Source of the DNA: Burkholderiales bacterium
Lineage (GTDB): Bacteria; Pseudomonadota; Gammaproteobacteria; Burkholderiales; Burkholderiaceae_C
Length of the DNA stretch: 64,000 nt
Assembly (NCBI GenBank): GCA_038208175.1
Contig: JBBQZA010000001.1
Location: 4,984-68,983 of the forward strand
Direction: 5' to 3'
In this document: positions 33,725 through 55,720 of the stretch, one piece after another
Numbering within the stretch: position 1 is the stretch's first letter
How the letters are laid out: every line of letters begins with the position of its first letter
Notes under the pieces: model-generated
Database searches by the model: none
Told to the model about the DNA's origin: nothing
Seen by the model: only the letters and a program-made list of their open reading frames with translations
Program-made: the position numbers and the translations under genes

Positions 33725-33741
33725 TGAGCGTGTCGACAGCC

Positions 33742-34221
33742 CTACAAGCGTGCCTGACCAGCGGCTCGCTTGAGCAACATGACACGGTTAGTCGCGAACC
33801 AATCGCCAACTTTTTCCAGGAAAGGTGCCGCAATTGCGATTCCCTCTTCTACTTCATCGACCTCCACCTTGAAAGCGGCGCGGTACTTGCGGTTTCTCCA
33901 ATCGCGCAGGGTGTCCAATTCATCGAACTGATGTTGCGTGAGCCCGACCGCTTGGGCCGCGCCCTCGAGTACCACCGCATGGTGCCCCTTTTCGCTTCCA
34001 GCTCGATACCCTTGGGCGCATGCAACGGCCAGACAGCAAAAAAGAACGGCGTCATAGGCCGCGTCCATACGGGTGGCTGGTGACACCGCCTTCATCCTCG
34101 CGTCTTTGAGCTTGATTTGCGCCTGCTGCAGCCAGGACATCACGTCTGGGCCATTAGCCGGCTGCTCGCGTAGCGGCGAGCCCGGCTCAGCGCTCAGTTT
34201 CTGAAATGACTGCAGCATCAA
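33742..34221 (-). CDS. HEPN-domain protein (MNT-HEPN TA partner)
   Basis: AYDAVL, GHHAVV, LRDWRNRKY; overlaps the MNT gene end. Confidence 0.7.
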   Translation of the reverse strand: MMLQSFQKLSAEPGSPLREQPANGPDVMSWLQQAQIKLKDARMKAVSPATRMDAAYDAVLFCCLAVACAQGYRAGSEKGHHAVVLEGAAQAVGLTQHQFDELDTLRDWRNRKYRAAFKVEVDEVEEGIAIAAPFLEKVGDWFATNRVMLLKRAAGQARL

Positions 34222-34786: not shown

Positions 34787-34806
34787 GTATGGATGCTGTC
34801 GAATTG

Positions 34807-34866
34807 GCTACATTGTAGCTAAATCAACTACAAATATGCAATAACTACTACGATGTAGTTGATTTA
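34807..34866. promoter_or_regulatory. Operator-like repeats upstream of MNT: GCTACA-T-TGTAGC (34807-34819) and TAAATCAACTACA-N21-TGTAGTTGATTTA (34820-34866)
   Basis: Perfect inverted repeats seen in an AT-rich region 21 bp upstream of the HTH-MNT start. Confidence 0.65.
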
Positions 34867-34946
34867 ACATCGGCGCCGCGACTGGTCCAGCGCAAACATC
34901 CGAACATGGTCCGGGTTGATGATTCGGCTGGCCTGATTCAGGCAAT

Positions 34947-35040
34947 GGCGACATTGCACTGTAGAACCGATACCCTGATCTGCGGCCACTGGAACGTGCG
35001 GCAATCCGGCAACTGCTGCAGGATGCGTTTGAGGGGGATG
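34947..35040 (+). pseudogene. C-terminal remnant of maleylacetate-reductase-like gene, copy 2
   Basis: GDIAL*NRYPDLRPLERAAIRQLLQDAFEGD; 50/53 nt identical to copy 1 over 34983-35035. Confidence 0.6.
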
Positions 35041-35118
35041 CGGCCTTGGGGGTGAAGAGCGGGTGGGAAGGGCTTCAACGAGCCCATGGCGGTCGTCGCG
35101 GGCTTTGGAAAGCGGACT

Positions 35119-35216
35119 GCTCAACGTTCCGGTTGAGCAGCGCGCCGAGCGCGATGCGAGCGCCGCTGAGAAGCGTCCGGCGCGTCTGCCTCAAACATGG
35201 CTTCGCACGATCTAAC
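35119..35216 (-). other. Degenerate attC (35119-35206) plus isolated R' core GTTAGAT (35210-35216)
   Basis: Arms GTTGAGCAGCGCGCCG / CGGCGCGTCTGCCTCAAAC; one core (GTTGAGC) intact, the other decayed. Confidence 0.5.
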
Positions 35217-35393
35217 CTTGTCGGAACGGATAGCGCGCAAGCAAGGCTTCCATCATTCTCCGCCCAATACCCTTCCGCTGAAAATTAGGATGCACTAGCA
35301 GATGCGGAAAGTACACGACCACCCGTTCCCTCTGTAAATAGCGAGGACTTCTTCTGCGTCGACGTTGTCGGAAAGAGAAATGTTCGCATCCAT
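35212..35393 (-). pseudogene. GNAT acetyltransferase cassette remnant (internal deletion, truncated)
   Basis: MDANISLSDNVDAEEVLAIYRGNGWS, then in another frame VYFPHLLVHPNFQRKGIGRRMMEALLARY (GNAT motif A). Confidence 0.7.
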
Positions 35394-35408
35394 GGCAGCG
35401 ATTGGGAG

Positions 35409-35472
35409 GTCTAACGTTGGAGCTACGCGGCGACGCGCTTGCGCGGCGTCCGGCTTGAGCGCGCAGTTATAC
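35409..35472 (-). other. attC site (64 bp)
   Basis: Minus strand GTATAAC-TGCGC-GCTCAAG...CGTAGC-TCCAAC-GTTAGAC. Confidence 0.85.
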
Positions 35473-35746
35473 GTGCCGGCCCGTCCACAAGGCGACCCGA
35501 AACATATTTGTGAAGCACACTGGCCATCAATGTTTGGTATGGCAGCCCCTCTGCTGCCGCTTTGGCCTGGAGCCCCTCAAGATCAATTGCCGAAATGCGG
35601 ATGTTCACACGCCTATTCTTAAGCAATGTTTCGGCCGCCGCTTCGCGATAGCGATCCATTTCCTTTTTCAGATTCTTTATAGGTTCCCATTCGCCTTTTT
35701 CAAACGAGCGCAGGACTTCCGCTTCGTACTCTTTATCACTCTTCAT
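35423..35746 (-). CDS. CopG/BrnA-like antitoxin
   Basis: KNRRVNIRISAIDLEGLQAKAAAEGLPYQTLMASVLHKYV ribbon-helix-helix; ORF runs into the attC. Confidence 0.82.
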   Translation of the reverse strand: MKSDKEYEAEVLRSFEKGEWEPIKNLKKEMDRYREAAAETLLKNRRVNIRISAIDLEGLQAKAAAEGLPYQTLMASVLHKYVSGRLVDGPARITARSSRTPRKRVAA

Positions 35747-36029
35747 CGCTAACCTCGCTTAGAAATCGCTTCGTCGCTTTGCGACTAGGCATGATTGTCT
35801 TAAGGAATATTTCATCTTCTGACTCGACCAACGGGACCAGGTGGGCGTAGGCTCGGACCTTCACCACCCAAATTCTCTGGTTCGGATACTTTCGCTGATT
35901 GGGATGGTCTAAAACAGTCAGTAGACCGCCCTGCTCAATGCTCGAGAGGATCTCCTCAAACGAAACGCCTCGCTCTTGCATGAGTTCGATATTCTTCTCA
36001 GGGTTCCAGCGAATCGGCTTTTTTTGCAT
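35736..36029 (-). CDS. BrnT-like toxin
   Basis: WNPEKN..L..ERGVSFEE, HPNQ.KYP.Q, VP.VE...EIFLKTI.PSRKAT. Confidence 0.82.
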   Translation of the reverse strand: MQKKPIRWNPEKNIELMQERGVSFEEILSSIEQGGLLTVLDHPNQRKYPNQRIWVVKVRAYAHLVPLVESEDEIFLKTIMPSRKATKRFLSEVSDEE

Positions 36030-36038
36030 CTAGGCAGC

Positions 36039-36068
36039 ATTATACCGCCGTGTGCCGTATGTGCTCAA
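36039..36068 (-). promoter_or_regulatory. Sigma70-like promoter TTGAGC-N18-TATAAT for the BrnT/BrnA-like pair
   Basis: Perfect -10 hexamer 9 bp upstream of the toxin ATG. Confidence 0.6.
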
Positions 36069-36074
36069 TTGTAT

Positions 36075-36577
36075 ATCGAGTCGGGGCGTGTCGCGCTCGG
36101 CGTCATGGAAGGCGCGGTCATGGAGCATCAGTTGGGCCTGGTGGAAGGCCCTTGCTGGCTGGAAGCGAGTAGCGCGGTACTGAACTTGGCGCATACGGTG
36201 GATGCGGTGGCTGAAACCGAAGTCTGCCTGCGACAGGTGCCGCTGGCCGAATTTCACCGTTCGCTGGCCCGCATGTCAGGGTCGGCCCAAGTCGTGTTCC
36301 ATGACATGGCGCTGGCACATCGCCAGCAGACCGAGTTCGCCGTCAGTCGCCTCGCCAAGGACGCCGAGGCGCGCTGTGCCGAGTGGTTGCTGCGTCATGC
36401 CGAAACCGGTGACGAGGGCGTGATGGCAGTGTTGCTGCAGCGGCGCAACTCGGCATTGCCCCTGAAACCCTGTCCCGCGTGCTGCGCCATCTGCGTGAGC
36501 GCTGCCTGATCAGCGGCTCCGGGCGCACCTTGAATGTGGTTGACCCGGGCGGCTTGCGCACGCTGGCCGGGTTTTAA
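36075..36577 (+). pseudogene. Crp/Fnr family regulator remnant (5'-truncated, frameshifted)
   Basis: EGPCWLE, AEARCAEWLL, then in another frame LGIAPETLSRVLRHLRERCLISG (Crp HTH). Confidence 0.75.
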
Positions 36578-36733
36578 GGGTGGACTGATTGCGGTCCATC
36601 ACCCGCTCCACTTTCTGTCTGTTTGACAGGATACATGCCGGACGCTTGCGATCAGAAAATTCAAGAATAGAGCAAAGACCGGCAAGAAAACGACATACCC
36701 TGTCGTTGACACCCACCCTGCAAACTCCTGCGC

Positions 36734-36792
36734 ACGTTACATTAGAGTTAAGCGGGCGGCTGCAAGCCAGTCCGACTTGAACGACGTTAGGC
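36734..36792 (-). other. attC site (59 bp), R' core degenerate
   Basis: Minus strand GCCTAAC-GTC-GTTCAAG...CTTAAC-TCTAAT-GTAACGT. Confidence 0.7.
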
Positions 36793-37536
36793 GTCTTCCG
36801 CTTTGCTGTGCCGACTGAGGAAGTCTTTTGCTTCATGAACGAGTCGCTCCTGTAGTTTGGCATGTTTCACATTTGGCGAAGGTTGCTCCAGCATTCGTTT
36901 TACCGAATAGCGGGCGGGGCGCAGTGTCGGTTTGTGTCCATTGAAGTACAGGCTCCAGAGCGACGAGTAGAGGCGAGCAAGAAAGACTAGGATCTGTCGC
37001 AACTCCTTGAGATTTGTCTTGGCGAACAGCTCACCCACTTCTTCGCGCGTAGTGACGCCACGATGGGCAAATACCTTGTGGCGACACGGGCGGTATTTCT
37101 CTTCGTAGAGCTTTCGCCTAACTGTGACGTGCCGCTTCAAGTTTCGGAAATCTTCTCGCGATGGCACATACACCGTCGCAAGATACTCGGGTAGCCATTC
37201 TTCTGCGTTCGCGCTGAGCTTGCGCTTTCGGTTGGCCAGTGCGTCTTTGGAGAAAATGTCGAGATTCGCATGTGCCAGCGCCAAGAGTCGCGTGACGCTG
37301 TAGTTGCTCTGATCGGGGTCGAAGATTCGCCCTAGTGCCACAAGTGCAGAGGCCTGAAGCGCACCGAGCGCAGTATTCCAGAACAGTGGTGCCTCATTGA
37401 GCATGCGGAAGACCGCCTTGTCTTTGGCCGCGACGGCGTGTACTGCATCCCATGCGAAGAAAAACTGCAGCGCGCTCTCCGCCTCGGTACGAAATAGCTC
37501 TAGCTGTCTCTCGAAGTCTGCGGACGGCGATGGCAT
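36787..37536 (-). CDS. HEPN AbiU2-like cassette protein (249 aa)
   Basis: LGRIFD, RHKVFAH (RxxxxH-type motif); cassette core GTTAGGCGT is the exact 9-bp complement of its own R'' ACGCCTAAC. Confidence 0.65.
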   Translation of the reverse strand: MPSPSADFERQLELFRTEAESALQFFFAWDAVHAVAAKDKAVFRMLNEAPLFWNTALGALQASALVALGRIFDPDQSNYSVTRLLALAHANLDIFSKDALANRKRKLSANAEEWLPEYLATVYVPSREDFRNLKRHVTVRRKLYEEKYRPCRHKVFAHRGVTTREEVGELFAKTNLKELRQILVFLARLYSSLWSLYFNGHKPTLRPARYSVKRMLEQPSPNVKHAKLQERLVHEAKDFLSRHSKAEDA

Positions 37537-37548
37537 GAGCGTAGAGAC

Positions 37549-37614
37549 GCCTAACGTAGAGGTCACCGGCGGAGCACCGCAGGCGCGAAGTCCGCGTGAA
37601 CCGTAGGGTTGGCA
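37549..37614 (-). other. attC site (66 bp)
   Basis: Minus strand TGCCAAC-CCTAC-GGTTCAC...GTGACC-TCTAC-GTTAGGC; canonical 5-bp spacers and extra base in L''. Confidence 0.9.
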
Positions 37615-38156
37615 CCGGCCAGCGCTTGCCATGCGGCATGTATGTGTTCATAGAGTGCAAGGAGTTGATCGACTCTAGGGCGCGAAGCCGTGTTTGGAAT
37701 GTTCGTCGCATCGATGTGCTCGACTGAACCAACGACAACCGAAGGGACATCGTAGTTCTCTTTGAGCGACTCCTTCGTCCATTTGGGCGTCGGGTACCTT
37801 CCGGCCCAGACAACATATCGTTCGGCGTGAAGCATCAGTTGTTCTTGTTCGGCGCTCAAAAACCCAGCTCCGCAGAGAACGATGACATCGTGACGGTAGA
37901 TGTCTTCTCGCGGCCCTGCATTACTTCTAAGGTAGTAGGCTTTGGCGATTAACTCCAAGGCCAGCGATGCGAGGAACTCTGCCGTCGGAAGCAGCATGAT
38001 GCTCTGAAACGTGGGGGATTCAATTGCAGCGTCGAAATCGCTCAGAAGCTGCTTTGAGGAGACGAGAAATTGCCTGGACTTGAATTCCCAGGTGTCATGA
38101 TCGAACGCAGCGGCGTCGCCGTCGGCTCGCCAACTGATAGAAGTGCCTGGCTGCAT
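37563..38156 (-). CDS. Hypothetical cassette protein, possibly HEPN-fold
   Basis: LALELIAKAY...HDVIVLC and WAGRYP resemble HEPN-like helical proteins; ORF ends inside the attC. Confidence 0.55.
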   Translation of the reverse strand: MQPGTSISWRADGDAAAFDHDTWEFKSRQFLVSSKQLLSDFDAAIESPTFQSIMLLPTAEFLASLALELIAKAYYLRSNAGPREDIYRHDVIVLCGAGFLSAEQEQLMLHAERYVVWAGRYPTPKWTKESLKENYDVPSVVVGSVEHIDATNIPNTASRPRVDQLLALYEHIHAAWQALAGANPTVHADFAPAVLRR

Positions 38157-38163
38157 ATGAGGG

Positions 38164-38253
38164 GCCTAATCGATTAGAGCTAACCGGCGCTGCGCGGCTT
38201 TATCGCGCAGCGTCCAGCGACCGAAGGGAGCGAGGTTGAGCGCCATGGTAGGT
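38164..38253 (-). other. attC site (90 bp), both cores mutated
   Basis: Plus strand GCCTAAT...GAGCTAACCGGCGCTGCGCGGCTTTATCGCGCAGCGTCC...GGTTGAGCGCCATGGTAGGT; cores read ATTAGGC and ACCTACC on minus. Confidence 0.65.
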
Positions 38254-38272
38254 CGGTCAGTGCGCATGGCAG

Positions 38273-38776
38273 TCATTTGCCTTCCAATAGCTTTCTTTTC
38301 TGAGCTTCAAATTCGGCTTCAGTCAGAATTCCGCGCTTGCGGAGGTCGTCGAGCTTGATGAGTTCGGCGTAGACGTCTTTGGGGCGGTCAGTTTGATCCT
38401 TGGTTTTCACGTCCGAAGTAATCTTCTCGGTCTTCTCAATAACGACATCTGCTCTTGGCACAAGGGACGTTCTGCGAACCTCTGGGTCGTTCTTGTCGAC
38501 GACCCTGAATTGGTATTCGAATGACGCCCATTGAGCAGGGCCGTTGCCCATGGGCTTCTCTTTCGAGGAGAGCGGAATTGCAACCTTGCCTTGACTCTCT
38601 GCGAAGGCATTTGCATCGTTGATGACACCTGCCTTCAACGCACTCGTGCTCGCAAATATGCCGCCGTGTGCTTCTCTTGACAGCATGTATGTATCAGGGG
38701 AGAGCTTAACGATGCCTGGATTCGCGCAACCAGACAAAGCGGCGATGCTCAAACAGAATGCCAGTGTGTTTCGCAT
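38273..38776 (-). CDS. Lipoprotein with C-terminal SHOCT domain (cassette)
   Basis: Lipobox LSGC; C-terminal ELIKLDDLRKRGILTEAEFEAQKRKLL. Confidence 0.85.
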   Translation of the reverse strand: MRNTLAFCLSIAALSGCANPGIVKLSPDTYMLSREAHGGIFASTSALKAGVINDANAFAESQGKVAIPLSSKEKPMGNGPAQWASFEYQFRVVDKNDPEVRRTSLVPRADVVIEKTEKITSDVKTKDQTDRPKDVYAELIKLDDLRKRGILTEAEFEAQKRKLLEGK

Positions 38777-38808
38777 GAATTCTCCAAGGAGGTGGGATTG
38801 AAAGCGAG

Positions 38809-38892
38809 ACCTAACGATCAGCGTTTATCTGCCGAGAGGCAAAGCTGGAAGAAACCAAGAGCGCCTCCTTCGGCAGATAAACCACGTTGGAC
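38809..38892 (-). other. attC-like site (84 bp), near-identical to 39492-39575
   Basis: GTCCAAC...GTTAGGT ends; 12-bp arms GTTTATCTGCCG/CGGCAGATAAAC; atypical spacers. Confidence 0.75.
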
Positions 38893-39043
38893 TGAACCGC
38901 CGGCACAGCGGTTGACTTACAGGGGACTGTAAGTTTGAAGCGGATGAAGCGGGACAGTTTTGAGCACAGTGCTGGGCTGACTGCGGCTGTGTGTGATGCG
39001 TGCACGGCAGCCACCGAGTCGCATGATGCGTTTACCCCCTGCA

Positions 39044-39484
39044 TCATCGGCGCGCACCTTGAACGCCGCGTGCATGTTTTGTGGGCGTGATGTGGCGGGG
39101 AGGAAAGTACCACCAGGCGGCCACGACGAGCAAGCCGAACAGCGTGTATGCGAGGGTAAACGCCCAGAACGGAGCCTCGTAGTAGAGCAGACGTTGAACC
39201 CAGTGTTCGATGAAGCCGTGCTCGTACGCAGGCTGTGCGCACTGTACGCGAAGCCATGATTCGAGTGTGGTGAGTGGGCAGAGTTTGCCGAGCCAGGACT
39301 GTGCGACGACGACGCCGATTGCGGCAAGGTGAGCGAGGCGGAACCAGATGTTGTTGACCCAACGCCAAGAGCGGAGGTTGCCTACGATGACCATGAACAG
39401 GCCGCCGACAACGAACACGACGACTGCGAAGTGCAGAAGAAGCACCGCATCAGCCAGTAGCTGATACGGCAGAGACGGTTGCAT
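39044..39484 (-). CDS. DUF2784-family membrane protein (cassette)
   Basis: LADAVLLLHF..V.FVVGG, FRLAHL, CPLTTLE.WLR, FIEHWVQRLLYY. Confidence 0.85.
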   Translation of the reverse strand: MQPSLPYQLLADAVLLLHFAVVVFVVGGLFMVIVGNLRSWRWVNNIWFRLAHLAAIGVVVAQSWLGKLCPLTTLESWLRVQCAQPAYEHGFIEHWVQRLLYYEAPFWAFTLAYTLFGLLVVAAWWYFPPRHITPTKHARGVQGARR

Positions 39485-39491
39485 TTGCGGC

Positions 39492-39575
39492 GCCTAACGA
39501 TTAGCGTTTATCTGCCGCGAGGCAAAGCTGGAAGAAACCATGATCGCCTCCTTCGGCAGATAAACCTTGTTGGAC
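39492..39575 (-). other. attC-like site (84 bp), first of the array
   Basis: GTCCAAC...GTTAGGC; DUF2784 ATG lies 7 bp after the core. Confidence 0.75.
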
Positions 39576-41563: not shown

Positions 41564-42110
41564 TACCCATGATCGCGGGGCGACCCTGCTGGCGATCACA
41601 CGCGCCGCGATCTCGACGACACTGGGCCGAACCTTGCATGCGGCTGAAGATGCGCCGTGGCTGCAGGAGCCCGGTGCCTGCTTCGTGACGCTGACCCAAC
41701 AGCGGCAACTGCGCGGCTGCATTGGCAGTCTCGAAGCACGCCGTTCCTTGCTTGTTGATGTCAAAGGCAACGCCGTGGCGGCCGCCCTGCACGACCCGCG
41801 CTTTACACCTTTGAAACTCGGCGAGCTGGCCGCGACAAAGATTGAAGTGTCCCTGTTGTCGCCGCTGCAGCCGATGCACTTTGACAGTGAGGCCGATGCG
41901 CTGGCACAGTTGCGACCCGGCATCGATGGACTGGTATTCGAATATGGACGTCACCGCAGCACATTTTTGCCGCAGGTCTGGGAACAATTGCCGTCGGCAC
42001 AAGAGTTCATGTCGCATCTCAAGCACAAGGCCGGCCTGACCTCCGATTTTTGGGCCAAGGAGGTGAGGCTGCAGCGTTACAGCGTAAGCCAATGGCATGA
42101 GGGCTCATGA
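41553..42110 (+). CDS. amrA: AmmeMemoRadiSam system protein A (AMMECR1 family)
   Basis: ACFVTL....LRGCIG, DPRF, IEVSLLS, STFLPQVWEQ; start at ATG 41553. Confidence 0.92.
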   Translation: MFTDTHDRGATLLAITRAAISTTLGRTLHAAEDAPWLQEPGACFVTLTQQRQLRGCIGSLEARRSLLVDVKGNAVAAALHDPRFTPLKLGELAATKIEVSLLSPLQPMHFDSEADALAQLRPGIDGLVFEYGRHRSTFLPQVWEQLPSAQEFMSHLKHKAGLTSDFWAKEVRLQRYSVSQWHEGS

Positions 42111-43186
42111 TGCAGGAATCCAGCTACCCGGCGCGCTACTGGCACACTCTTGCCGACGGTCGCATGCAGTGCGACCTGTGCCCGCGCGATTGCAAGCTGC
42201 ACGAGGGGCAGCGCGGCGCCTGTTTTGTGCGCGCGCGCCGCGGCGAGCAGATGGTTCTCACGACCTATGGACGCTCTTCGGGCTTTTGCATCGACCCGAT
42301 CGAAAAGAAGCCGCTGAATCATTTCTACCCCGGTAGCAGTGTGCTGTCCTTCGGCACAGCCGGCTGCAATCTGGCCTGCAAGTTCTGCCAGAACTGGGAT
42401 ATCAGCAAGTCGCGCGACATGGACCGCCTGATGGACCAGGCGACGCCCGATGCGATCGCCGCCGCGGCGCTCCAGCATGGCTGCAAGAGCGTTGCCTTCA
42501 CCTACAACGACCCGGTCATTTTTGCCGAATACGCGATCGATGTGGCCGATGCCTGCCATGCGCACGGTATCCAGACCGTGGCCGTGACGGCCGGCTACCT
42601 GCACGAGCAGGCGCGGCGTGATTTTTTCGCCAAGATGGACAGCGCGAATGTCGACCTGAAAGCCTTCAGCGAGGACTTCTATTTCAAGCTCACCGGCGCG
42701 CATCTGCAACCGGTGCTCGATACCCTGGTTTATCTGGCGCACGAGACCCCTGTCTGGCTTGAGATCACCACGCTGCTGATCCCCGGTCACAACGACTCGG
42801 ACGCAGAAATCAGCGCGCTGTGTCGCTGGATCAGGCAAGAGCTCGGAGCCGAAGTGCCGCTGCATTTCTCGGCCTTCCACCCCGACCACAAGATGCTGGA
42901 CGTGCCGGCCACACCCATAGCGACGTTGGTGCGCGCGCGCAGCATCGCCATGGCACAAGGGCTGCATCACGTCTATACCGGCAACGTGCACAACATCGAA
43001 GGTGATACCACTTTTTGCCCGCACTGCAAAGCGCCGCTGATCGTGCGCGACTGGTATCTGATCAAACAGTACCGGCTTGACCGGCCAGGTCATTGTCCGG
43101 ATTGTGGTGCGGCCCTGGCCGGTCACTTTGACGCACAGGCCGGTCACTTTGGCCGCCAGCGCATTCCGGTTGCGATTGGCGCCTGA
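42107..43186 (+). CDS. amrS: AmmeMemoRadiSam system radical SAM enzyme
   Basis: C..CPR.C, DPIEKKPL.HF.PG, GCNLACKFCQNW (CxxxCxxC), YTGNVH, C-terminal C..C. Confidence 0.93.
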   Translation: MMQESSYPARYWHTLADGRMQCDLCPRDCKLHEGQRGACFVRARRGEQMVLTTYGRSSGFCIDPIEKKPLNHFYPGSSVLSFGTAGCNLACKFCQNWDISKSRDMDRLMDQATPDAIAAAALQHGCKSVAFTYNDPVIFAEYAIDVADACHAHGIQTVAVTAGYLHEQARRDFFAKMDSANVDLKAFSEDFYFKLTGAHLQPVLDTLVYLAHETPVWLEITTLLIPGHNDSDAEISALCRWIRQELGAEVPLHFSAFHPDHKMLDVPATPIATLVRARSIAMAQGLHHVYTGNVHNIEGDTTFCPHCKAPLIVRDWYLIKQYRLDRPGHCPDCGAALAGHFDAQAGHFGRQRIPVAIGA

Positions 43187-43210
43187 GCGTCAACGCGGAC
43201 AGCGGTAGCT

Positions 43211-44536
43211 CTATTTCACCGCGGCGTCCGCCAGTTCCAGGGCTTTTTCGACAATCGCCAAGCCCTCATCAAGTTGTTCTTTGGTGATGCACAAGGGCGG
43301 CGCGATGAACAGGATGCTGCCCATGTTGTTGGCCATGATGTAGGTAAACAAGCCGTTCTGGCGCAGATACTTACCCACTTCTGCCATCACGCTGGCCGGC
43401 ATGATTTCCTTGCTCTCGCGGTTGGCGACTACCTCGATGGCGGAGAACAAGCCGATATATCGCACATCGCCAACGCAGGCATGACGCGCCTTGATGGCTT
43501 CCAGCTTCTCGCCCAGGTGTTTACCCACCACGCGGGCGTTTTCGATGAGCTTGTCATCGTCATAGACTTCAATCGTCGCCAGCGCTGCCGCGCAAGCCAG
43601 TGCGTGACCGTTGTAGGTCAAGCCCGCATAAAGATATTTGTCCTCAAAGAACTCGGCAATCTTGTCCGTAACGATGACCGCGCCAAGCGGCACGTAGCCG
43701 CTGGTGAGACCTTTCGCAGTAGTGATGATGTCGGGGGTGACATTCCAGTTATCCACGGCGAACCATTCACCGGTACGCCCCCAACCGCTCATCACTTCGT
43801 CAGAGATCAACAGGATGCCGTACTTGTCGCAAATTTCGCGCACGCGAGGCCAATAGTCATCCGGCGGGACGATCAAACCGTTAGAGCCAACCACGCCTTC
43901 CATGATGATGGCGGCGATCTTGTCCGGACCTTCGTACTTGATGACTTCTTCCAGGTGGGAAATGCATTCGCGTTTGCAGGATTCCTTCTTTTGACCAAAC
44001 GGACAGCGATAGCAGAATGGGTCAAGAAAGTGGACGCCGCCCGGCATCACGGGCTCGACCGCCACACGCCGATAGTCACCGGTCGCCGCCAGTGAGCCAT
44101 GCGTCGCGCCATGGTAGGAGCGGTAGCGCGCAAGAATCTTGTGCCGCCCGGTGTAGAAACGGGCAATCTTGATTGCATTTTCATTGGCTTCTGAGCCGCC
44201 CACCGTAAAGAAGGTCTTTTTCAGGTTTCCGGGCGTGACTTCCGACAGTTTTTTACCCAACAACGCACGCGCTTCGGTGGTATTGCCCGGGTGAACAAAA
44301 CACAGTTTGTCAGCCTGATCCTTGATCGCCTGGACCACCTTGGGGTGCTGGTGCCCGACGTTGGTGTTCATCAGCTGCGAGGAAAAGTCGATGTAACGTT
44401 TGCCGTCGGTATCCCAGAAGTAGATTCCCTGCGCTTTCGCGACCGGCATGGGATTAGTCTGCGCCTGCACCGACCACGAGAAGAAGGTGTATTCCTTGCT
44501 CAGGTCAACCATTTCTTTGGAAGTTAGCTTGGTCAT
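43211..44536 (-). CDS. Class III (omega-amino acid) aminotransferase
   Basis: GIYFWD.DGKRY.DF, SYHG, DEVMSGWGRTG, PDIITTAKGLTSGY, IAPPL; start at ATG 44536. Confidence 0.9.
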   Translation of the reverse strand: MTKLTSKEMVDLSKEYTFFSWSVQAQTNPMPVAKAQGIYFWDTDGKRYIDFSSQLMNTNVGHQHPKVVQAIKDQADKLCFVHPGNTTEARALLGKKLSEVTPGNLKKTFFTVGGSEANENAIKIARFYTGRHKILARYRSYHGATHGSLAATGDYRRVAVEPVMPGGVHFLDPFCYRCPFGQKKESCKRECISHLEEVIKYEGPDKIAAIIMEGVVGSNGLIVPPDDYWPRVREICDKYGILLISDEVMSGWGRTGEWFAVDNWNVTPDIITTAKGLTSGYVPLGAVIVTDKIAEFFEDKYLYAGLTYNGHALACAAALATIEVYDDDKLIENARVVGKHLGEKLEAIKARHACVGDVRYIGLFSAIEVVANRESKEIMPASVMAEVGKYLRQNGLFTYIMANNMGSILFIAPPLCITKEQLDEGLAIVEKALELADAAVK

Positions 44537-44734
44537 ATCTTTTCCTATTATCAAATACCAAATCACAAAGAGCAGAAAAGCGCATCTCTGCACTATGTTG
44601 GCGCGCTTGCCTGTCCACCATTTGCTGTTTTTTGCCGCATCACGGAAAAAGATAAGTGTATCCCGATTGTTTTTACCACGACTCGAAAAAGCACTGGTTT
44701 GAGTTGCAGAAAACGGCTGCTGAGTTGTTGGCTG

Positions 44735-45670
44735 CTATGGCAATAGTGGCCGGTGCGCCTTTAACAGGCAATCCTGAAAAGCCCGCGTTATTCTGGACGG
44801 TTGCGGGGAGCGACGGATGATGCTGAAAAAACTGCATTCGTAGCGGAACAAGTCCGGTTTAACGGTACGCATTTGAGCGCTTCGCACGAAAGTCTGCGCA
44901 TAATGATCGGGTAGAAACCCCAGATACTTGCCAGACTTGATCAGCGTCGCAATCGACTCCTGGTCGTAGCCCGTAGCCTTGCGCGACAGACGCTGCTGTT
45001 GGCTGATTTCCATATTCGGCGAGTGGTAACCCAAACCGGCAAAATCGTGGCTTCGAAGCGTATCCCAGTCCATGGCGAGCGCCTCCGTATTGAACAGCGC
45101 GTGGTTGGCGCCGCAGTACAGGAGCATGGTCTCATTGAACAGTTTTTCATAGGCCAGCGTATCGGAACTGCGATGGCCCGGAATCACCCCAACCTGAAAC
45201 TGACCGTCGATGACGCCGCGTTCGATGTTGTTCAGCGGGGCCACGAATAAATGCAGGCTGACGTCGGGCGCCAGGTCCGAAAACATGGCGATGGCCTCAG
45301 CCAGATGAGCCTGCGGATTGCTGGCCGTCTTGTCGAATAGCGCAATGTTGAGTTGCCCTCCCATGCGGCGATGGATTTCGTCCACACTGGCGCGAAAGGC
45401 GTCGGCACCCGCCAGCAGGCGCAACGTTTCGGTGTAGATCTGCTGACCTTCAAGGGTCAGGGCAAAACCGGCCCGACCACGGCGGCACAGGGTCAGCCCA
45501 AGGCGCGTCTCCAGGTCCTTGATGTGACGGCTGACGGTGGAGGTGCCGATGTTGAGTTCCAATTCGGCGGCAGCCATGCCGCCACACTCCACGACGCTTT
45601 TGAACACCCGCAATAACCGGATGTCCATGTCGCTGAGTTGCCCCAGGGCTGAGCGGCTTTTTGCTTGCAT
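44735..45670 (-). CDS. LysR family regulator (BauR-like)
   Basis: DIRLLRVFKSVVECGGMAAAELELNIG.STVSRH; divergent from the mmsA block. Confidence 0.85.
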   Translation of the reverse strand: MQAKSRSALGQLSDMDIRLLRVFKSVVECGGMAAAELELNIGTSTVSRHIKDLETRLGLTLCRRGRAGFALTLEGQQIYTETLRLLAGADAFRASVDEIHRRMGGQLNIALFDKTASNPQAHLAEAIAMFSDLAPDVSLHLFVAPLNNIERGVIDGQFQVGVIPGHRSSDTLAYEKLFNETMLLYCGANHALFNTEALAMDWDTLRSHDFAGLGYHSPNMEISQQQRLSRKATGYDQESIATLIKSGKYLGFLPDHYAQTFVRSAQMRTVKPDLFRYECSFFSIIRRSPQPSRITRAFQDCLLKAHRPLLP

Positions 45671-45773
45671 AAATTGCTAACTTAATAGTGATAAGTATAC
45701 ATTTGTAAGAGTAACAGACTGGCCCAGAATTACCTACTCTTTCACGGGCGCCAAAGGCTGCGATTACACCAAC

Positions 45774-45899
45774 AAAAAAGGCTTTTACGTGCGCTACGGC
45801 GGTGATACCATCCAACTCGCACCACCCTTCATCACAACGCCAGCCCAGATTGACAGCTTGGTCAACGCGCTCGGCGAAACCATCAACCAAACTGTTTAA
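45774..45899 (+). pseudogene. 3' remnant of beta-alanine/omega-amino acid:pyruvate aminotransferase (bauA-like)
   Basis: KKGFYVRYGGDTIQLAPPFITTPAQIDSLVNALGETINQTV* directly upstream of mmsA. Confidence 0.75.
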
Positions 45900-45919
45900 C
45901 ACTCCTCAGGACCTTTCTC

Positions 45920-47425
45920 ATGCAAAACCTTCCACTGATTCAGCACTTGATTGACGGCCAGCTGGTGGCCGGCGGCAGCCGCTCGCAAGAAGTCTTCAAC
46001 CCGGCCCTCGGCAAGGCAGAAAAGCGTGTCCTGCTGGCCGACAAGACCACGGTAGAACAGGCCATTGCCTCGGCCCAAAGCGCTTACCCGGCCTGGCGTG
46101 CCACACCACCGCTGAAACGCGCGCGCGTCATGAGCAAGCTCAAAGAGTTGCTGGAAGCGAATGCCGATCAGATCTGTGCCCTGGTCACGGCCGAACACGG
46201 CAAAGTGCTAAGCGATTCTCTGGGTGAACTGCAGCGCGGCATCGAGAACGTCGAATACGCCAGCTACGCGCCGGAGCTGCTCAAGGGTGAACACAGCAAA
46301 AACGTCGGCCCCTCGATGGACTCCTGGAGCGAGTTTCAGGCGCTCGGTGTCACGGCCGGCATCACGCCGTTCAACTTCCCGGTCATGGTGCCCTTGTGGA
46401 TGTGGCCGATGGCGGTCGCCTGTGGCAATACCTTTGTGCTCAAACCCTCCGAGCGCGACCCCAGCAGTGCGCTGCTGGTCGCGCAACTGGCATTGCAAGC
46501 CGGCCTGCCGCCCGGTGTTCTGAATGTGGTGCACGGTGACAAGGAAGCGGTCGACACCCTGCTCGGCGACAAGCGCGTGCAGGCCATCAGCTTTGTCGGC
46601 TCGACGCCAATTGCCGAATACATTTATGCCACCGGCTGTGCCAATGGCAAACGGGTGCAGGCGCTCGGCGGCGCCAAGAACCACGCGGTGGTGATGCCTG
46701 ACGCCGATGTACCCAATGCGGTGAGCGCCTTGATGGGTGCCGCCTATGGCTCTTGCGGTGAACGCTGCATGGCGATTCCACTGGTCGTAGCGGTTGGCGA
46801 TGCCACCGCCGACGCCGTCGTGGCTGGCCTGAAGGTTGAAATTTCAAAAATGAAGGTTGGCCCTGGCACCGACGCCGCCAACGACATGGGCCCGTTGGTC
46901 ACGAAAGCTCATTTTGAGAAAGTCAAAGGCTATGTGGATCAAGGCGTGCTGGAAGGCGCCACACTGGTGGTGGATGGCCGCGGCGTCAAGGTAAGCGGCC
47001 ACGAAGACGGCTACTTTCTGGGCGCCTGCCTGTTTGACAACGTTAAACCCGGCATGAAGATCTATCAGGAAGAAATCTTCGGTCCAGTGCTGGGCGTGAT
47101 GCGGGTCAAGACGCTGCAGGAAGCAATGGACCTGATCGATGCGCATGAATACGGCAACGGCACCTGCATCTTCACGCGCGATGGCGAAGCCGCCCGCTAC
47201 TTCAGCGACAACATCCTGGTCGGCATGGTTGGCGTCAACGTGCCGCTACCGGTGCCGGTGGCCTATCATTCTTTTGGCGGCTGGAAACGCTCGCTGTTTG
47301 GCGACCTGCACGGCTACGGTCCGGATGCGGTACGGTTCTACACCAAACGCAAGACCATCACCCAGCGCTGGCCGTCAGCCGGGGTGCGCGAGGGAGCAGT
47401 GTTCAGCTTTCCGACCAACCGGTAA
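45920..47425 (+). CDS. mmsA: CoA-acylating methylmalonate/malonate-semialdehyde dehydrogenase
   Basis: ITPFNFP.MVP.WM, LKPSERDP, GGAKNH, GERCMA, SFGGWKRSLFGD. Confidence 0.95.
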   Translation: MQNLPLIQHLIDGQLVAGGSRSQEVFNPALGKAEKRVLLADKTTVEQAIASAQSAYPAWRATPPLKRARVMSKLKELLEANADQICALVTAEHGKVLSDSLGELQRGIENVEYASYAPELLKGEHSKNVGPSMDSWSEFQALGVTAGITPFNFPVMVPLWMWPMAVACGNTFVLKPSERDPSSALLVAQLALQAGLPPGVLNVVHGDKEAVDTLLGDKRVQAISFVGSTPIAEYIYATGCANGKRVQALGGAKNHAVVMPDADVPNAVSALMGAAYGSCGERCMAIPLVVAVGDATADAVVAGLKVEISKMKVGPGTDAANDMGPLVTKAHFEKVKGYVDQGVLEGATLVVDGRGVKVSGHEDGYFLGACLFDNVKPGMKIYQEEIFGPVLGVMRVKTLQEAMDLIDAHEYGNGTCIFTRDGEAARYFSDNILVGMVGVNVPLPVPVAYHSFGGWKRSLFGDLHGYGPDAVRFYTKRKTITQRWPSAGVREGAVFSFPTNR

Positions 47426-47910: not shown

Positions 47911-49026
47911 ATGCTGATCGGATTACCCAAAGACATCAAGAACCACGAATATCGCGTGGGTCTGACCCCGGCCAGCGTGCGCGAGCTGGCAGCGCACGGA
48001 CATCAGGTTCTGGTGCAGGCTGGCGCCGGCGCTGCCATTGGCCTGACCGATGAACAGTACCAGGCGGCTGGTGCAACGCTCTCGCTGGACGCCAAGGACA
48101 TTTTCGCCAAGGCCGAGATGATCGTCAAAGTCAAGGAACCTCAGCCGCAAGAATGCGCCATGCTACGCCCAGGACAGATTCTTTACACCTACCTCCATTT
48201 GGCGCCCGACCCACAGCAAACTGCCGCACTCATCAAGTCAGGCGCTATCTGCATTGCCTATGAAACCATCACTGGACCCGGCGGCGGATTGCCCCTGCTG
48301 GCACCGATGAGCGAAGTGGCTGGCCGCATGGCGGTGCAGGCCGGCGCGGCACATCTGGAAAAATCCAAAGGCGGAATGGGCGTGCTGCTGGGTGGCGTGC
48401 CTGGCGTTCCGGCCGCCCACGTCGCCATCATCGGTGCTGGCGTGGTTGGAACCCACGCACTGCAAATGGCCGTGGGCATGGGCGCGCGCGTCAGCGTTCT
48501 GGACAAGAACGTGGATCGCCTGCGCCAGCTCGATCTGGTCTTCGGTAACCGCATCAACACCATCTACTCGAACGCGCAAAGCGTGGAAGATGCCGTACTC
48601 GACGCCGATCTGGTCATCGGGGGTGTCTTGATTCCTGGCGCCGCAGCGCCCAAACTGGTAAGTCGCAGCATGATCTCGCGAATGAAGAAGGGCGCCGTAA
48701 TTGTTGACGTGGCGATAGACCAGGGTGGTTGCTTTGAAACCTCGCATGCAACCACACACGCCGAGCCGACTTACTTGGTGGACGAAGTCGTGCACTACTG
48801 CGTTGCCAATATGCCGGGTGCCGTGGCGCGCACCTCGACCTTCGCGCTGAACAACGCGACCATTGGACATGCTGTGGCACTGGCCGAGAAAGGCTGGAAG
48901 CAGGCCCTGATGGACAATCCGCACCTGAAGAACGGCCTGAACGTCGCCAACGGTCACGTGACCTACGAAGCCGTGGCGCAGGACCTGGGCTACGCTTATG
49001 TGAGCGCCGACAGTTTGCTGGGGTGA
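47911..49026 (+). CDS. ald: Alanine dehydrogenase
   Basis: EYRVGLTP, KVKEP, LLAPMSEVAGR, GAGVVG, DVAIDQGG, ANMPGAV. Confidence 0.96.
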   Translation: MLIGLPKDIKNHEYRVGLTPASVRELAAHGHQVLVQAGAGAAIGLTDEQYQAAGATLSLDAKDIFAKAEMIVKVKEPQPQECAMLRPGQILYTYLHLAPDPQQTAALIKSGAICIAYETITGPGGGLPLLAPMSEVAGRMAVQAGAAHLEKSKGGMGVLLGGVPGVPAAHVAIIGAGVVGTHALQMAVGMGARVSVLDKNVDRLRQLDLVFGNRINTIYSNAQSVEDAVLDADLVIGGVLIPGAAAPKLVSRSMISRMKKGAVIVDVAIDQGGCFETSHATTHAEPTYLVDEVVHYCVANMPGAVARTSTFALNNATIGHAVALAEKGWKQALMDNPHLKNGLNVANGHVTYEAVAQDLGYAYVSADSLLG

Positions 49027-50502: not shown

Positions 50503-51753
50503 TTAGACCACCCGGGAAGAACGCAAAGCGGCCATCGCCGCAGCGTCCACTCCCAATTCCGCCAGCACTTCATCGGTGTGTTCGCCCAGCGCTGGAGGTG
50601 CCCGTCGCAGCACAGGCGGGGTCGCCATCAGGCGTAACGGACTGGCGACAGTGGCGATGGATTCGACCGCTGTCCTGGCATTAGCCGTTGGCGACCGGGG
50701 CTGCTTCACCACCAAACCACGGGCTGCGACCTGGGCATCAGCAAAAGCCTGCCCAATATCGTTGATCGGACCACAGGGGACGGCCTGGTCTTCCAGCAGT
50801 GCAATCCACTGCGCCGTGCTGCGGCTACGGGTCACTTCCTGCATCGCAGAAATCAGTGCTTCACGGTGTTTCACGCGCAGTGTGTTGTTGGCAAAACGGG
50901 GGTCGGAGGCCCACTCCGGATGCGCAGCGACCTCACAAAAGCGGGCGAACTGGCCGTCATTGCCGATCGCCAGCAGCATGGATCCGTCCAGCGTCTGGAA
51001 GTCCTGGTAAGGAGCGAGGCTGGGGTGGCTGTTGCCCTGACGCTGCGGCACCTTGCCGGTATTCAAGAAGCCGGCTGCCTGATTGCCCAAAATGGCCATC
51101 CCCACATCCAGCAATGCCATATCGATGTACTGACCCTCACCGCTGCGGTGCCGCACTTCCATGGCCGCCAAAATGGCGCTACAAGCATAGACACCGGTGA
51201 AAATATCGGTCAGTGCAACGCCAACGCGCTGCGGTCCGCCACCCGTCACGTCATCTGAGCGGCCTGTGATGCTCATCATGCCGCTCATGGCCTGAATCAT
51301 CAGGTCGTAGCCAGCACGCTCGGCATACGGACCGTCCTGACCAAAACCCGTGACAGAGCAATAAATCAGGCGCGGATTCAGGATCTTCAAGCTGGCGTAG
51401 TCCAGCCCGTATTGCTGCAAACCACCGACCTTGAAATTTTCCACCAGGATGTCACTCTTCAAGGCCATCTGGCGAATCAAAGCCTGCCCTTCGGGCTTGG
51501 CCATGTCGATGGTTATGGAGCGCTTGTTGCGGTTGCAGGCTGTGAAATAGCTGGCCTGATCGGTATCGCTGCCCGCTGCATCCTTCAGGAATGGCGGCCC
51601 CCAGTGGCGTGTATCGTCGCCGACGTCAGGGCGCTCAACCTTGATCACATCAGCTCCCAGGTCAGCCAACATTTGGGTGCACCAGGGGCCGGCCAGTACG
51701 CGGGACAGGTCGAGTACTTTGATATGCGAGAGGGCGGCTTGTTTATTGGTCAT
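50503..51753 (-). CDS. CaiB/BaiF family III CoA-transferase (probable glutarate CoA-transferase)
   Basis: DLSRVLAGPW, GDDTRHWGPP, NRNKRS, AGYD; downstream of gcdH. Confidence 0.9.
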   Translation of the reverse strand: MTNKQAALSHIKVLDLSRVLAGPWCTQMLADLGADVIKVERPDVGDDTRHWGPPFLKDAAGSDTDQASYFTACNRNKRSITIDMAKPEGQALIRQMALKSDILVENFKVGGLQQYGLDYASLKILNPRLIYCSVTGFGQDGPYAERAGYDLMIQAMSGMMSITGRSDDVTGGGPQRVGVALTDIFTGVYACSAILAAMEVRHRSGEGQYIDMALLDVGMAILGNQAAGFLNTGKVPQRQGNSHPSLAPYQDFQTLDGSMLLAIGNDGQFARFCEVAAHPEWASDPRFANNTLRVKHREALISAMQEVTRSRSTAQWIALLEDQAVPCGPINDIGQAFADAQVAARGLVVKQPRSPTANARTAVESIATVASPLRLMATPPVLRRAPPALGEHTDEVLAELGVDAAAMAALRSSRVV

Positions 51754-51815
51754 CGTGAGTTCTCTCTTTTCTCTCGTTAGCTCTGTTTACTCGCCACAGG
51801 GTGTCCGGCCAGGTG

Positions 51816-51933
51816 GGAGCATTCCGGCGGTGGCCCGGAGCACGCCGGTGGGGCACTCAGTTCCGCGAATGTCCCCCGCCTACGGCTCCTCCTTTATTTC
51901 GCTGCACTGAGCGCCCCATCGGCGTGCTCCTGC
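51816..51933. repeat. ~118-bp hairpin repeat element, copy 2 (inverted relative to copy 1)
   Basis: Matches the reverse complement of 24655-24772 with a few substitutions. Confidence 0.85.
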
Positions 51934-52052
51934 ATTTGTGGTGAGCGATTGCGCCCCAACGCCGCCGTTTGCCACTACCGGCATACCAGTTCTTGTCTTT
52001 CGAAAACCACAGGGTATCAGACATCGGCAAGTCAACAAATAATTTGCAACCG

Positions 52053-53249
52053 TCAATTCGCAAAAGCCGCAATCCCGGTCTGCGCCCGGCCCAGAATCAG
52101 CGCATGGATGTCGTGCGTACCTTCATAGGTATTCACCGCTTCCAGGTTCACCAAATGGCGCGCCACGCCAAACTCATCCGAGATACCGTTGCCACCCATC
52201 ATGTCGCGTGCCAGACGTGCCACGTCGAGCGCTTTGCCGCAGGAATTGCGCTTCAGGATCGATGTGACTTCAACCGAGGCAGTGCCCTCGTCCTTCATCC
52301 GGCCCAGTCGCAGACAACCCTGCAGGCCGAGTGCAATTTCGGTCTGCATGTCGGCCAGTTTTTTCTGAATCAATTGATTGGCCGCCAGCGGGCGGCCAAA
52401 TTGTTTGCGCTCCAGCACATACTGGCGCGAGCGAAACCAGCAATCTTCAGCCGCACCCAAAGCACCCCAGGCAATACCGTAGCGCGCCGAGTTGAGGCAG
52501 CTAAAAGGCCCCTTTAATCCATGCACTTCGGGAAAGGCATTCTCTTGCGGGCAGAACACAGCGTCCATCACGATTTCGCCGGTGATCGAGGCGCGTAAAC
52601 CGACCTTGCCATGAATCGTTGGCGCACTCAAACCCTTGGCCCCTTTGTCCAGTACGAAGCCACGAATCGGGCCTACATGACCACTTTCGCTGACTTCTTT
52701 GGCCCAGACCACAAACACATCCGCAACGGGGGAGTTGGAAATCCACATTTTGTTGCCGGTCAGCTTGTAGCCGCCGGCAGTTTTGTGGGCGCGGGCAGCC
52801 ATGGAACCCGGGTCGGAACCATGATCCGGTTCGGTCAGGCCAAAGCAGCCTATCCATTCACCGGTGGCCAATTTCGGCAGGTATTTTTGCTTTTGCGCCT
52901 CACTACCAAATTCAAAAATGGGCACCATCACGAGTGAACTTTGCACACTCAACATGGAGCGGTAACCGGAATCGACGCGCTCGACTTCACGCGCGATCAG
53001 GCCGTACGCCACATAGTTGAGGCCGGGGCCGCCATAGGCGTCGGGAATGGTCGGACCCAGCAAACCGAGTTCCCCCATTTCACGAAAGATGGAAATATCG
53101 GTCTGTTCCTTGCGGAAGGCCTCAATCACACGCGGCTGGAGCTGGTCCTGGCAATAGGCAGCAGCCGCGTCGCGCACCATGCGCTCCTCATCGCTGAGCT
53201 GGCTGTCGAGCAAAAAAGGGTCTTGCCAGTTAAAGGCAGCGTTGGGCAT
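52053..53249 (-). CDS. gcdH: Glutaryl-CoA dehydrogenase (decarboxylating)
   Basis: [58 protein letters not shown]; start at ATG 53249. Confidence 0.95.
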
Positions 53250-53522
53250 AAGTGTTCTCCGGTTAAGCAATTGACAACAAATCCAGTGCTGCAACTGCAT
53301 TGAGTGGCGCATGGTAGCGGACCGAAGGGCAAAAAAGCAAACGACTTCTATTCACCTAGTTATGCAAATTATTCATATTTAGTCTAAAAATGTTATGACC
53401 TAATCATCTCCTGGCGCGGTCCAACAACGCACTTTTTACCCTTTGCGTTGTCGACAGTCTGAGCATTTCAGTAAAGTGTCAAATCCAGGTGTTCGAAAGA
53501 TATTGTGTATATTTCGCATATC

Positions 53523-54534: not shown

Positions 54535-55695
54535 ATGAATTTCGAATTGACCGAAGAACAGCAACTGATCCAGGACACGGCCCGGCGCTTCGCTGCGGAG
54601 GACATAGCGCCGACACTCGAAGCCGAGGAAAGCAGGCACGAGTTTCGTGCCGATCGGGTCGCAAAAATGGGCGGCTTGGGATTTTTTTCCTGCGCCCTGC
54701 CCGAGGAGTTCGGTGGCAGCGGCATGGGTTTCTTCGAGTCGGTCCTGATGGCCGAACAGATCGCCAAAATCTCCGCCTCCTGGCGCTTGCCATTCAACAT
54801 GCAGAACCTGGGACCGGCGCTGACCGTGAACAAGTTCGGCTCGCAGGCGCAGAAGGAAAAGTATGTCCCCGGCTGGGTCGCCGGCACCCAATTGGGATTC
54901 TTCGCCATGACCGAATCCAACACCGGCTCGGATGTTTCCAGCATGAAGACCCACGCTATCGACAAGGGCGATCACTGGGAGATACACGGCTCCAAGATAT
55001 GGATTTCGCAGGCGCAGGTTGGCGATGCCGGCCTGCTCTATGCCTATACCGACAGGACCCAGGGTAACAAGGGTATCACTGCCTTCATCATCGAACCGAA
55101 GAACATGCCGGGCTGCAGCGCCCGCGCCATCGAAACCAAGCTCGGCCTGAAATGCGCACCGACCGGCGAGTTCGCCTTCGATGGCATGAAGGTGCCAAAA
55201 GAAAATGTGTTGGGCAAGCCCGGCGAGGGGTTTCGCATCTGCATGTGGCAACTCAATCAAACCCGGCTCGGTTGCGCGGCGGGCGCGCTGGGCGTGGCCG
55301 GCGGTGCGCTGGATCTGGCCGTTGGGTATGCCAACGAGCGCAACCAGTTCGGCAAGCCGATCTCGCAGCATCAGATGGTCCAGGCGCAGATTGCCGAGAT
55401 GGTGGTCGAACACCAGGCGGCGCAAATGCTGGTCTATCGGGCAGCCTGGCTGAAAGACCAGGGCAAGCCGAACCAATTTGAGACCTCGGTCGCCAAGTAT
55501 GCCGCGTCCGAGGCAGCGGTTCACGCCGCCAACGAGTGCATGAAGATTTATGGCTCGTACGGGTTTTCCACCGAGTATCCGGCCGAGCGTTTCTACCGCG
55601 ACGCCAAGTCGCTGCAGGTGGTGGAAGGCACGTCCAACATCCAGAAAGTCATCATCTCGGGCATGGCGCTGGGCTTCACGCCGAACCGCGAGTAG
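54535..55695 (+). CDS. Acyl-CoA dehydrogenase, probably non-decarboxylating glutaryl-CoA dehydrogenase
   Basis: YAYTD..G.KG.TAF.IEPKN.PG, GSYGFSTEYPAERFYRDA, VEGTSNIQKVII resemble the Desulfococcus multivorans enzyme; adjacent to gcdA. Confidence 0.75.
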   Translation: MNFELTEEQQLIQDTARRFAAEDIAPTLEAEESRHEFRADRVAKMGGLGFFSCALPEEFGGSGMGFFESVLMAEQIAKISASWRLPFNMQNLGPALTVNKFGSQAQKEKYVPGWVAGTQLGFFAMTESNTGSDVSSMKTHAIDKGDHWEIHGSKIWISQAQVGDAGLLYAYTDRTQGNKGITAFIIEPKNMPGCSARAIETKLGLKCAPTGEFAFDGMKVPKENVLGKPGEGFRICMWQLNQTRLGCAAGALGVAGGALDLAVGYANERNQFGKPISQHQMVQAQIAEMVVEHQAAQMLVYRAAWLKDQGKPNQFETSVAKYAASEAAVHAANECMKIYGSYGFSTEYPAERFYRDAKSLQVVEGTSNIQKVIISGMALGFTPNRE

Positions 55696-55720
55696 TAGGC
55701 GACAACAGAGGAAGATAGAC

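Follow-up and report, generated by a model that had tools for sequence, protein, structure and literature searches.

The window analysed here is a stretch of 64,000 nucleotides from a Burkholderiales genome (assembly GCA_038208175.1, contig JBBQZA010000001.1), and the subject of this account is a locus between positions 42107 and 49026 in which a LysR-type regulator gene is flanked on one side by an intact class-III aminotransferase gene and on the other by the remnant of a second aminotransferase gene, followed by mmsA. The genome is metagenome-assembled, with 430 contigs, 91.6% completeness, 4.4% contamination and a size of 3.9 Mb, and the window lies on a contig of 75.6 kb. The mmsA product, a (methyl)malonate-semialdehyde dehydrogenase (MMSDH), is 90-96% identical at the amino acid level to proteins named as Rhodoferax, which identifies the host as a member of that genus (Comamonadaceae); other genomes of the genus are referred to below as congeners. 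The regulator, MmsA and the alanine dehydrogenase further along are as the initial annotation had named them, with the LysR protein matching generic LysR NCBIfam models alone, all below cut-off. The features of the locus, with coordinates counted from the first nucleotide of the window, are as follows:

42107-43186, plus strand: AmmeMemoRadiSam radical-SAM gene, the native left flank of the insertion (TIGR04337, 647 bits; 76-79% nucleotide identity with congeners up to 43176-43183)
43187-43210, no strand: 24-bp junction from the radical-SAM stop to the stop of the foreign gene, unmatched in congeners and donor-clade loci and without a repeat or attC-like feature
43211-44536, minus strand: horizontally acquired class-III aminotransferase gene, 441 amino acids, assigned to the Toa-like NF004718/PRK06062 subfamily, of Anaerolineales origin (family score, phylogeny and census)
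44537-44546, minus strand: ribosome-binding region that was transferred with the open reading frame (ORF), with AGGA some 8 nt ahead of the ATG (donor-clade DNA homology reaches 44546-44551)
44547-44734, minus strand: AT-rich leader from the lysR stop to the foreign gene, unmatched in congeners and donor loci, which may hold a promoter or act as a read-through spacer
44735-45670, minus strand: native LysR-type regulator gene in a BauR-like position (71-78% nucleotide identity with congeners, same position)
45671-45742, no strand: conserved divergent promoter/operator region, kept intact (almost identical in three congeners as far as about 45742)
45743-45773, no strand: deletion junction of 31 bp, where congeners have 1,246-1,305 bp
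45774-45899, plus strand: remnant of the native beta-alanine:pyruvate aminotransferase gene, its last 41 codons and stop (93% amino acid identity with residues 409-448 of the gene in congener G016)
45920-47425, plus strand: native gene for CoA-acylating MMSDH (MmsA), now directly behind the retained promoter (TIGR01722, 642 bits; 79-85% nucleotide identity with congeners)
47911-49026, plus strand: native alanine dehydrogenase gene, partner of the lost pyruvate-dependent enzyme (TIGR00518, 535 bits; syntenic in congeners G004, G008 and G016)

Loss of the native aminotransferase gene

The DNA from lysR to mmsA was searched against 18 genomes of the same genus. In the congeners, the LysR gene is divergent from an aminotransferase-mmsA operon, and the interval between the two flanks in congener G016 encodes an aminotransferase of 449 amino acids. 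The best matches of the congeners' gene in the PDB are omega-amino acid and beta-alanine:pyruvate transaminases (4UHM, 4B98 and 3A8U; 621-644 bits). In the genome analysed here, the gap between lysR and mmsA is 250 bp, and frame +3 of 45675-45899 ends in the 41-codon tail, with its stop at 45897-45899. DNA homology to the congeners ends at about 45742 and restarts exactly at 45774, so that the interval measures 31 bp, as against 1,246-1,305 bp in the 12 congeners in which both flanks are on one contig. Alignments with the congeners place the left breakpoint some 20 nt before the start codon of the native gene. The deletion, of about 1.25 kb, took the ribosome-binding site and start codon of that gene together with approximately 408 of its codons, while the 72-bp divergent control region beside lysR is conserved almost base for base and mmsA keeps its own AGGA ribosome-binding site.

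A census of 143 other genomes of the genus, 73 of them of high quality, recovered the native gene in 112 (68 of the high-quality set), with a single match in each. No second copy of the native type was found elsewhere in the present genome, where the best other match is 36% identical. The BauA-type beta-alanine:pyruvate aminotransferase of the genus is deleted in this genome, with its tail, its promoter and mmsA retained, which agrees with the initial annotation in so far as it recognised only the last 41 codons of an aminotransferase between the regulator and mmsA. In congener G011 (contig C42; L030:6000-7345), the native bauA-type gene is split over three reading frames, with residues 1-111, 89-400 and 383-448 in frames 3, 1 and 2, respectively. 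This may be an independent pseudogene or the result of indel errors in an assembly that is 86% complete with 6% contamination.

Origin and boundaries of the inserted aminotransferase

The intact aminotransferase gene on the far side of lysR was not found in any of the 143 congeners or in 400 genomes of the family representing 201 genera (threshold E <= 1e-100), and its best match within the genus is a paralogue of 40% identity. Its nearest relatives in a collection of 5.8 billion proteins share 83-89% identity and are labelled Chloroflexi/Anaerolineae wherever a name is attached. In a separate search of a species-level genome collection, the best loci (about 60, at 55-89% identity), a large share of which are on contigs 0.2-2 Mb long, were all from Chloroflexota and mostly from Anaerolineales. 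A quick maximum-likelihood IQ-TREE search of 83 sequences, with SH-aLRT as its only support measure, placed the protein within successive Anaerolineales forks (support 95, 95, 99 and 98), beside the sequences from loci L037, L034 and L033, with the paralogues of the genus far outside this clade (hereafter the donor clade). Synonymous divergence (dS) from the nearest sampled relatives is 1.3-1.6, which is saturated, and the ratio of non-synonymous to synonymous divergence (dN/dS) is 0.04-0.07, the same as among pairs within the donor clade, indicating that the foreign gene has been under purifying selection. A scan of metagenomes gave no closer donor, with nothing above 86% identity among the matches listed. 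The lineage of the foreign aminotransferase is that of the Anaerolineales (Chloroflexota), and the gene was acquired horizontally; clustering with Comamonadaceae orthologues in conserved synteny, the outcome that would have pointed to a native gene, was not seen.

The closest relative of all (L037, DYDH01000067.1; 89% amino acid and 80% nucleotide identity) comes from a metagenome-assembled genome labelled Herpetosiphon sp., whereas all other close relatives are from Anaerolineales, and the MMSDH encoded downstream of it shares only 57% identity with its L034 counterpart. Mis-binning, an incorrect label or an additional transfer inside the Chloroflexota may explain this.

The initial annotation had described the gene as visibly less GC-rich and as Lys-rich, and both descriptions are accurate: its GC content of 0.557 is the lowest of the 37 genes in the window, and lysine makes up 7.3% of the protein (versus 3.6 +/- 1.6%). 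However, the GC deficit resides in codon positions 1 and 2 and reflects amino acid composition, while GC content at third positions (GC3) is 0.715 versus 0.729 +/- 0.052 in the host and the codon log-likelihood difference of 0.021 falls inside both the host and the donor ranges. GC3 and codon usage, which had been suggested as a check, do not discriminate and are uninformative as a test of foreignness. Composition therefore speaks neither for nor against transfer, and the case is carried by phylogeny and synteny.

By its match to NCBIfam NF004718/PRK06062 (559.2 bits against a cut-off of 472; residues 21-459 of a 460-amino-acid reading aligned with profile positions 12-453/454), the foreign enzyme is assigned to this subfamily of class-III (fold type I) pyridoxal phosphate-dependent aminotransferases, and Pfam PF00202 is the precomputed assignment of its protein cluster. 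The subfamily carries no functional name. The enzyme shares 28% identity with the BauA-type protein of the congeners and falls outside that type as defined by similarity and by position between LysR and mmsA, in keeping with the earlier view that it belongs to a different subfamily.

The boundaries of the insert were defined by comparison with the congeners and the donor clade. G016 has the radical-SAM gene directly against lysR, tail to tail, whereas 1.57 kb separate the corresponding points, 43183 and 44754, in the present genome. The insert consists of a single intact ORF with its ribosome-binding site, a 198-bp leader and a 24-bp tail. The ORF is full length relative to its homologues; it follows lysR in the same orientation, at a distance of 1.2 kb from the deleted gene. 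At the DNA level, donor-clade genes match the insert at no more than 80% identity and only over 43212-44546, a span made up of the ORF and some 10 nt containing the ribosome-binding site. No match to the leader was found in 100 congeners or 80 donor-clade loci, nor to the tail in congeners or donor-clade loci, and neither piece resembles other sequence in the window; this comparison covered a decaying array of integron cassettes (CALIN, 32543-39575) that lies 3.6 kb from the foreign gene. The leader had been called AT-rich, which is borne out by a GC content of 0.46-0.50 around 44350-44950.

Several candidate explanations for the junctions and the leader were rejected. No insertion sequence element or target-site duplication was found at the junctions, and neither the tail nor the leader contains a significant inverted repeat or an attC-like site (RYYYAAC/GTTRRRY cores) of the kind expected of an integron cassette. 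The leader has no Rfam match and folds no better than shuffled sequences (z = +1.07), arguing against a riboswitch or other structured leader. Finally, scenarios in which an inversion joins insertion and deletion in one event give the wrong gene order, although this point was considered by reasoning only.

The 3' flank of lysR also differs among congeners. In congener G004 (contig C131; L028:7366-8106), approximately 750 bp separate the radical-SAM gene from lysR and hold an ORF of 246 amino acids without an NCBIfam match, and in G014, G011, G008 and G005 lysR has entirely other neighbours, suggesting that this flank is a variable spot in the genus.

Predicted function and proposed displacement of the native aminotransferase

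In the donor clade, the aminotransferase gene usually has a gene for MMSDH directly behind it. Adequate downstream sequence was available for 134 loci from genomes and metagenomes, and 73 of these have an MMSDH gene 0-220 bp further downstream in the same orientation. Such a gene follows in 32 of 42 loci in which the aminotransferase shares 78% identity or more with the protein of the window, and in none in which it shares 58% or less. The conserved donor-clade block runs in the order Lrp/AsnC regulator, glutamate-1-semialdehyde-aminomutase-like aminotransferase, the aminotransferase discussed here, MMSDH (TIGR01722, 557 bits, over cut-off), in many cases a Na+/solute symporter, a putrescine-aminotransferase-like gene and a second Lrp/AsnC regulator. 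An aminotransferase followed by MMSDH is the architecture of the route from beta-alanine to acetyl-CoA that has been shown biochemically in Pseudomonas sp. AAC (PMC4907197). In contrast, the Toa enzyme of Bifidobacterium kashiwanohense, a taurine:2-oxoglutarate transaminase, has as its partners a sulfoacetaldehyde reductase and a taurine transporter (PMC6616044), whereas the partner in the donor clade and in the host is an MmsA-type dehydrogenase. No sulfoacetaldehyde acetyltransferase (Xsc) over cut-off was found in the genome (best 314 versus 676 bits; IsfD, TauF and TauABC were not searched). The coupling to MMSDH in the donor clade, taken together with the lack of Xsc over cut-off, suggests that the foreign enzyme is a beta-alanine or 3-aminoisobutyrate transaminase feeding the MmsA of the host. 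Most likely, then, it does the job of the lost enzyme, and functional replacement is favoured over a new substrate range; the changed range suggested in the initial annotation (taurine or 5-aminovalerate) finds no support in these data. What changed may be the amino acceptor rather than the substrate.

The aminotransferase gene upstream of the donor-clade gene in one of these loci (L034:4641-5939) scores over the cut-off of the NCBIfam 'equivalog' model for GntE, a transaminase of guanitoxin biosynthesis (655 versus 525 bits). As this gene sits in an amine-catabolic context in Anaerolineales, the model probably over-reaches, or the gene encodes a related diamine or aminoaldehyde transaminase.

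It appears fairly probable that the locus records the non-orthologous displacement of the native aminotransferase by a horizontally acquired analogue in a Rhodoferax lineage. The deletion and the foreign insertion that had been proposed as xenologous displacement are both borne out by the congeners, but strict in-situ xenology does not hold, as the two genes are paralogues of 28% identity located 1.2 kb apart. For the foreign gene to lie within about 1.2 kb of its deleted analogue in a genome of 3.9 Mb would, by our estimate, have a chance of approximately 1 in 1,000, a coincidence that points to gain and loss being linked by selection.

Under the displacement model, the foreign enzyme would transaminate beta-alanine (or 3-aminoisobutyrate) to malonate semialdehyde (or methylmalonate semialdehyde), which the host MmsA, still under the LysR-regulated promoter, would convert to acetyl-CoA or propionyl-CoA, and the pathway would thereby survive with a swapped first enzyme. 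After the deletion, the LysR-controlled promoter would read through the 41-codon remnant into mmsA. As the 198-bp leader holds no consensus promoter, Rfam element or unusual structure, transcription of the foreign gene would depend on read-through from lysR or on a promoter within the leader that the scan missed. The amino acceptor may now be 2-oxoglutarate in place of pyruvate, which the neighbouring alanine dehydrogenase recycles. Should the foreign enzyme share the use of 2-oxoglutarate with its nearest characterised relative, the alanine dehydrogenase would lose this role.

Displacement of genes by horizontal transfer, whether non-orthologous or in situ, is a concept that reportedly goes back to Koonin and colleagues. 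The present case resembles it in that a native gene was lost and a putative analogue from a distant phylum gained while the rest of the operon and the regulator were kept. It differs from in-situ displacement in that the incoming gene lies 1.2 kb away, beyond the regulator, on the other strand and outside the regulated operon, with functional equivalence deduced from the donor context. Similarly, the congeners share with the bauR-bauA-bauC(mmsA) locus of Pseudomonas (the KES23458/KES23460 operon of Pseudomonas sp. AAC, PMC4907197; PDB 4B98) a LysR gene divergent from genes for a BauA-type enzyme and MMSDH, and MmsA and the regulator are kept in the present genome, but the BauA-type gene is reduced to 41 codons and its putative replacement is 28% identical and from another class-III subfamily. 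The foreign gene belongs to the same clade as the aminotransferase-MmsA modules of amine-catabolic clusters in Anaerolineales/Chloroflexota, with up to 89% identity, yet the aminotransferase ORF alone was transferred, without the donor mmsA or regulators.

A broader reading, which we put forward tentatively, is somewhat less likely to be right than wrong. The large Anaerolineales PRK06062 clade, whose members are labelled 'taurine--2-oxoglutarate transaminase' or 'hypothetical protein', would consist of beta-alanine/3-aminoisobutyrate aminotransferases working with MmsA, and the swap in Rhodoferax would be a natural complementation experiment, in which one promoterless ORF of another phylum performs, from a position outside the regulated operon, the first step of a LysR-regulated pathway, with the acceptor changed from pyruvate to 2-oxoglutarate and alanine dehydrogenase made redundant.

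A number of observations weigh against displacement as described above. The best solved homologue of the foreign enzyme is the B. kashiwanohense taurine:2-oxoglutarate transaminase (PDB 6JIX; 410 bits, about 50% identity over the full length), and Trp21 and Arg156 of that structure, which reportedly contact the sulfonate, are conserved in the foreign enzyme. These residues could bind a carboxylate instead, and 50% identity leaves the substrate unfixed. No consensus sigma-70 promoter was recognised in the leader, and terminator-like hairpins, such as a weak one 35 nt before the foreign start codon, occur at chance frequency. The saturated dS to the nearest relatives implies that the true donor is unsampled. 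Lastly, the arrangement is known from one contig of a single metagenome-assembled genome, and none of the metagenome matches listed provided another assembly with these junctions.

Alternative accounts and neighbouring genes

It is unlikely, in our judgement, that gain and loss were unrelated events, with the beta-alanine route lost, mmsA kept for the catabolism of valine, thymine or inositol, and the foreign enzyme serving the use of nitrogen from taurine or another omega-amine, or acting on 5-aminovalerate that feeds the nearby glutarate genes. The taurine specificity of the closest solved relative would fit such an account, as would the name taurine--2-oxoglutarate transaminase given to homologues in JGI annotations and the lack of a recognised promoter tying the foreign gene to LysR control. 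In the same direction point two genes in the region 50503-53312 whose products score under the family cut-offs, one for a CoA-transferase with succinate--glutarate CoA-transferase as its best match and the other for an acyl-CoA dehydrogenase that has glutaryl-CoA dehydrogenase among its matches. However, the partner in the donor clade is MMSDH and not an enzyme acting on sulfoacetaldehyde or glutarate semialdehyde, the genome has no Xsc over cut-off, and a chance landing beside the deleted analogue is improbable.

Still less likely is an indirect transfer, in which the whole rearranged region, from the aminotransferase gene and its leader through lysR and the deleted bauA to mmsA, arrived by homologous recombination from an unsampled relative, or the gene passed through an intermediate vector or host, so that the step from Anaerolineales to Rhodoferax was neither direct nor recent. 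This would account for a leader and a 24-bp tail without known source, for the saturated dS to the nearest Anaerolineales genes and for a GC3 that is already host-like, and the decaying integron cassette array nearby suggests that the region accepts foreign DNA. Against it, no proteobacterial carrier was found in 543 genomes of the family or the best 80 metagenome loci, and the flanking native genes have ordinary identity to congeners. An assembly or binning artefact, in which a Rhodoferax-Anaerolineales chimera is combined with a mis-join that mimics the deletion, is suggested by the fragmented, 4.4% contaminated metagenome assembly and the single contig but is very improbable, as the foreign piece is exactly one ORF with its ribosome-binding site, Rhodoferax genes stand on both sides in the order of the congeners, the leader matches neither source, the junctions share no repeats, GC3 is host-like, and a chimera would call for two template switches independent of each other and, on top of these, a separate and precise loss of the functional analogue.

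Displacement of the native aminotransferase by the Anaerolineales gene would be an event of a kind already well known, and no new mechanism or system is involved. What is unusual is that a single-ORF insert from another phylum sits beyond the regulator and apart from the regulated operon, and that the scar is defined at the level of single bases. Scar, insert and the kept regulator and promoter can all be placed with base precision by comparison with many congeners, making the locus a clean natural example, and it offers a functional lead for a widespread, uncharacterised clade of Chloroflexota aminotransferases labelled taurine transaminase or hypothetical protein.

A few kilobases from the genes of (methyl)malonate-semialdehyde metabolism, the window contains two further genes with decarboxylase similarities. 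The first (55550-57454) is carboxyltransferase-like, with a weak match to the methylmalonyl-CoA decarboxylase alpha model TIGR01117 (128 bits versus a cut-off of 999). The second (57555-58760) encodes a carboxybiotin decarboxylase beta subunit that reaches 538 bits, just short of the cut-off of 597, on TIGR03136 (Na+-transporting malonate decarboxylase) and exceeds the cut-off of TIGR01109 (sodium-pump decarboxylase beta subfamily). Within the locus, the segment 47540-47736 recurs at the same position with 72% nucleotide identity in congener G004 (L028:1092-1288), and hence is not specific to this genome.

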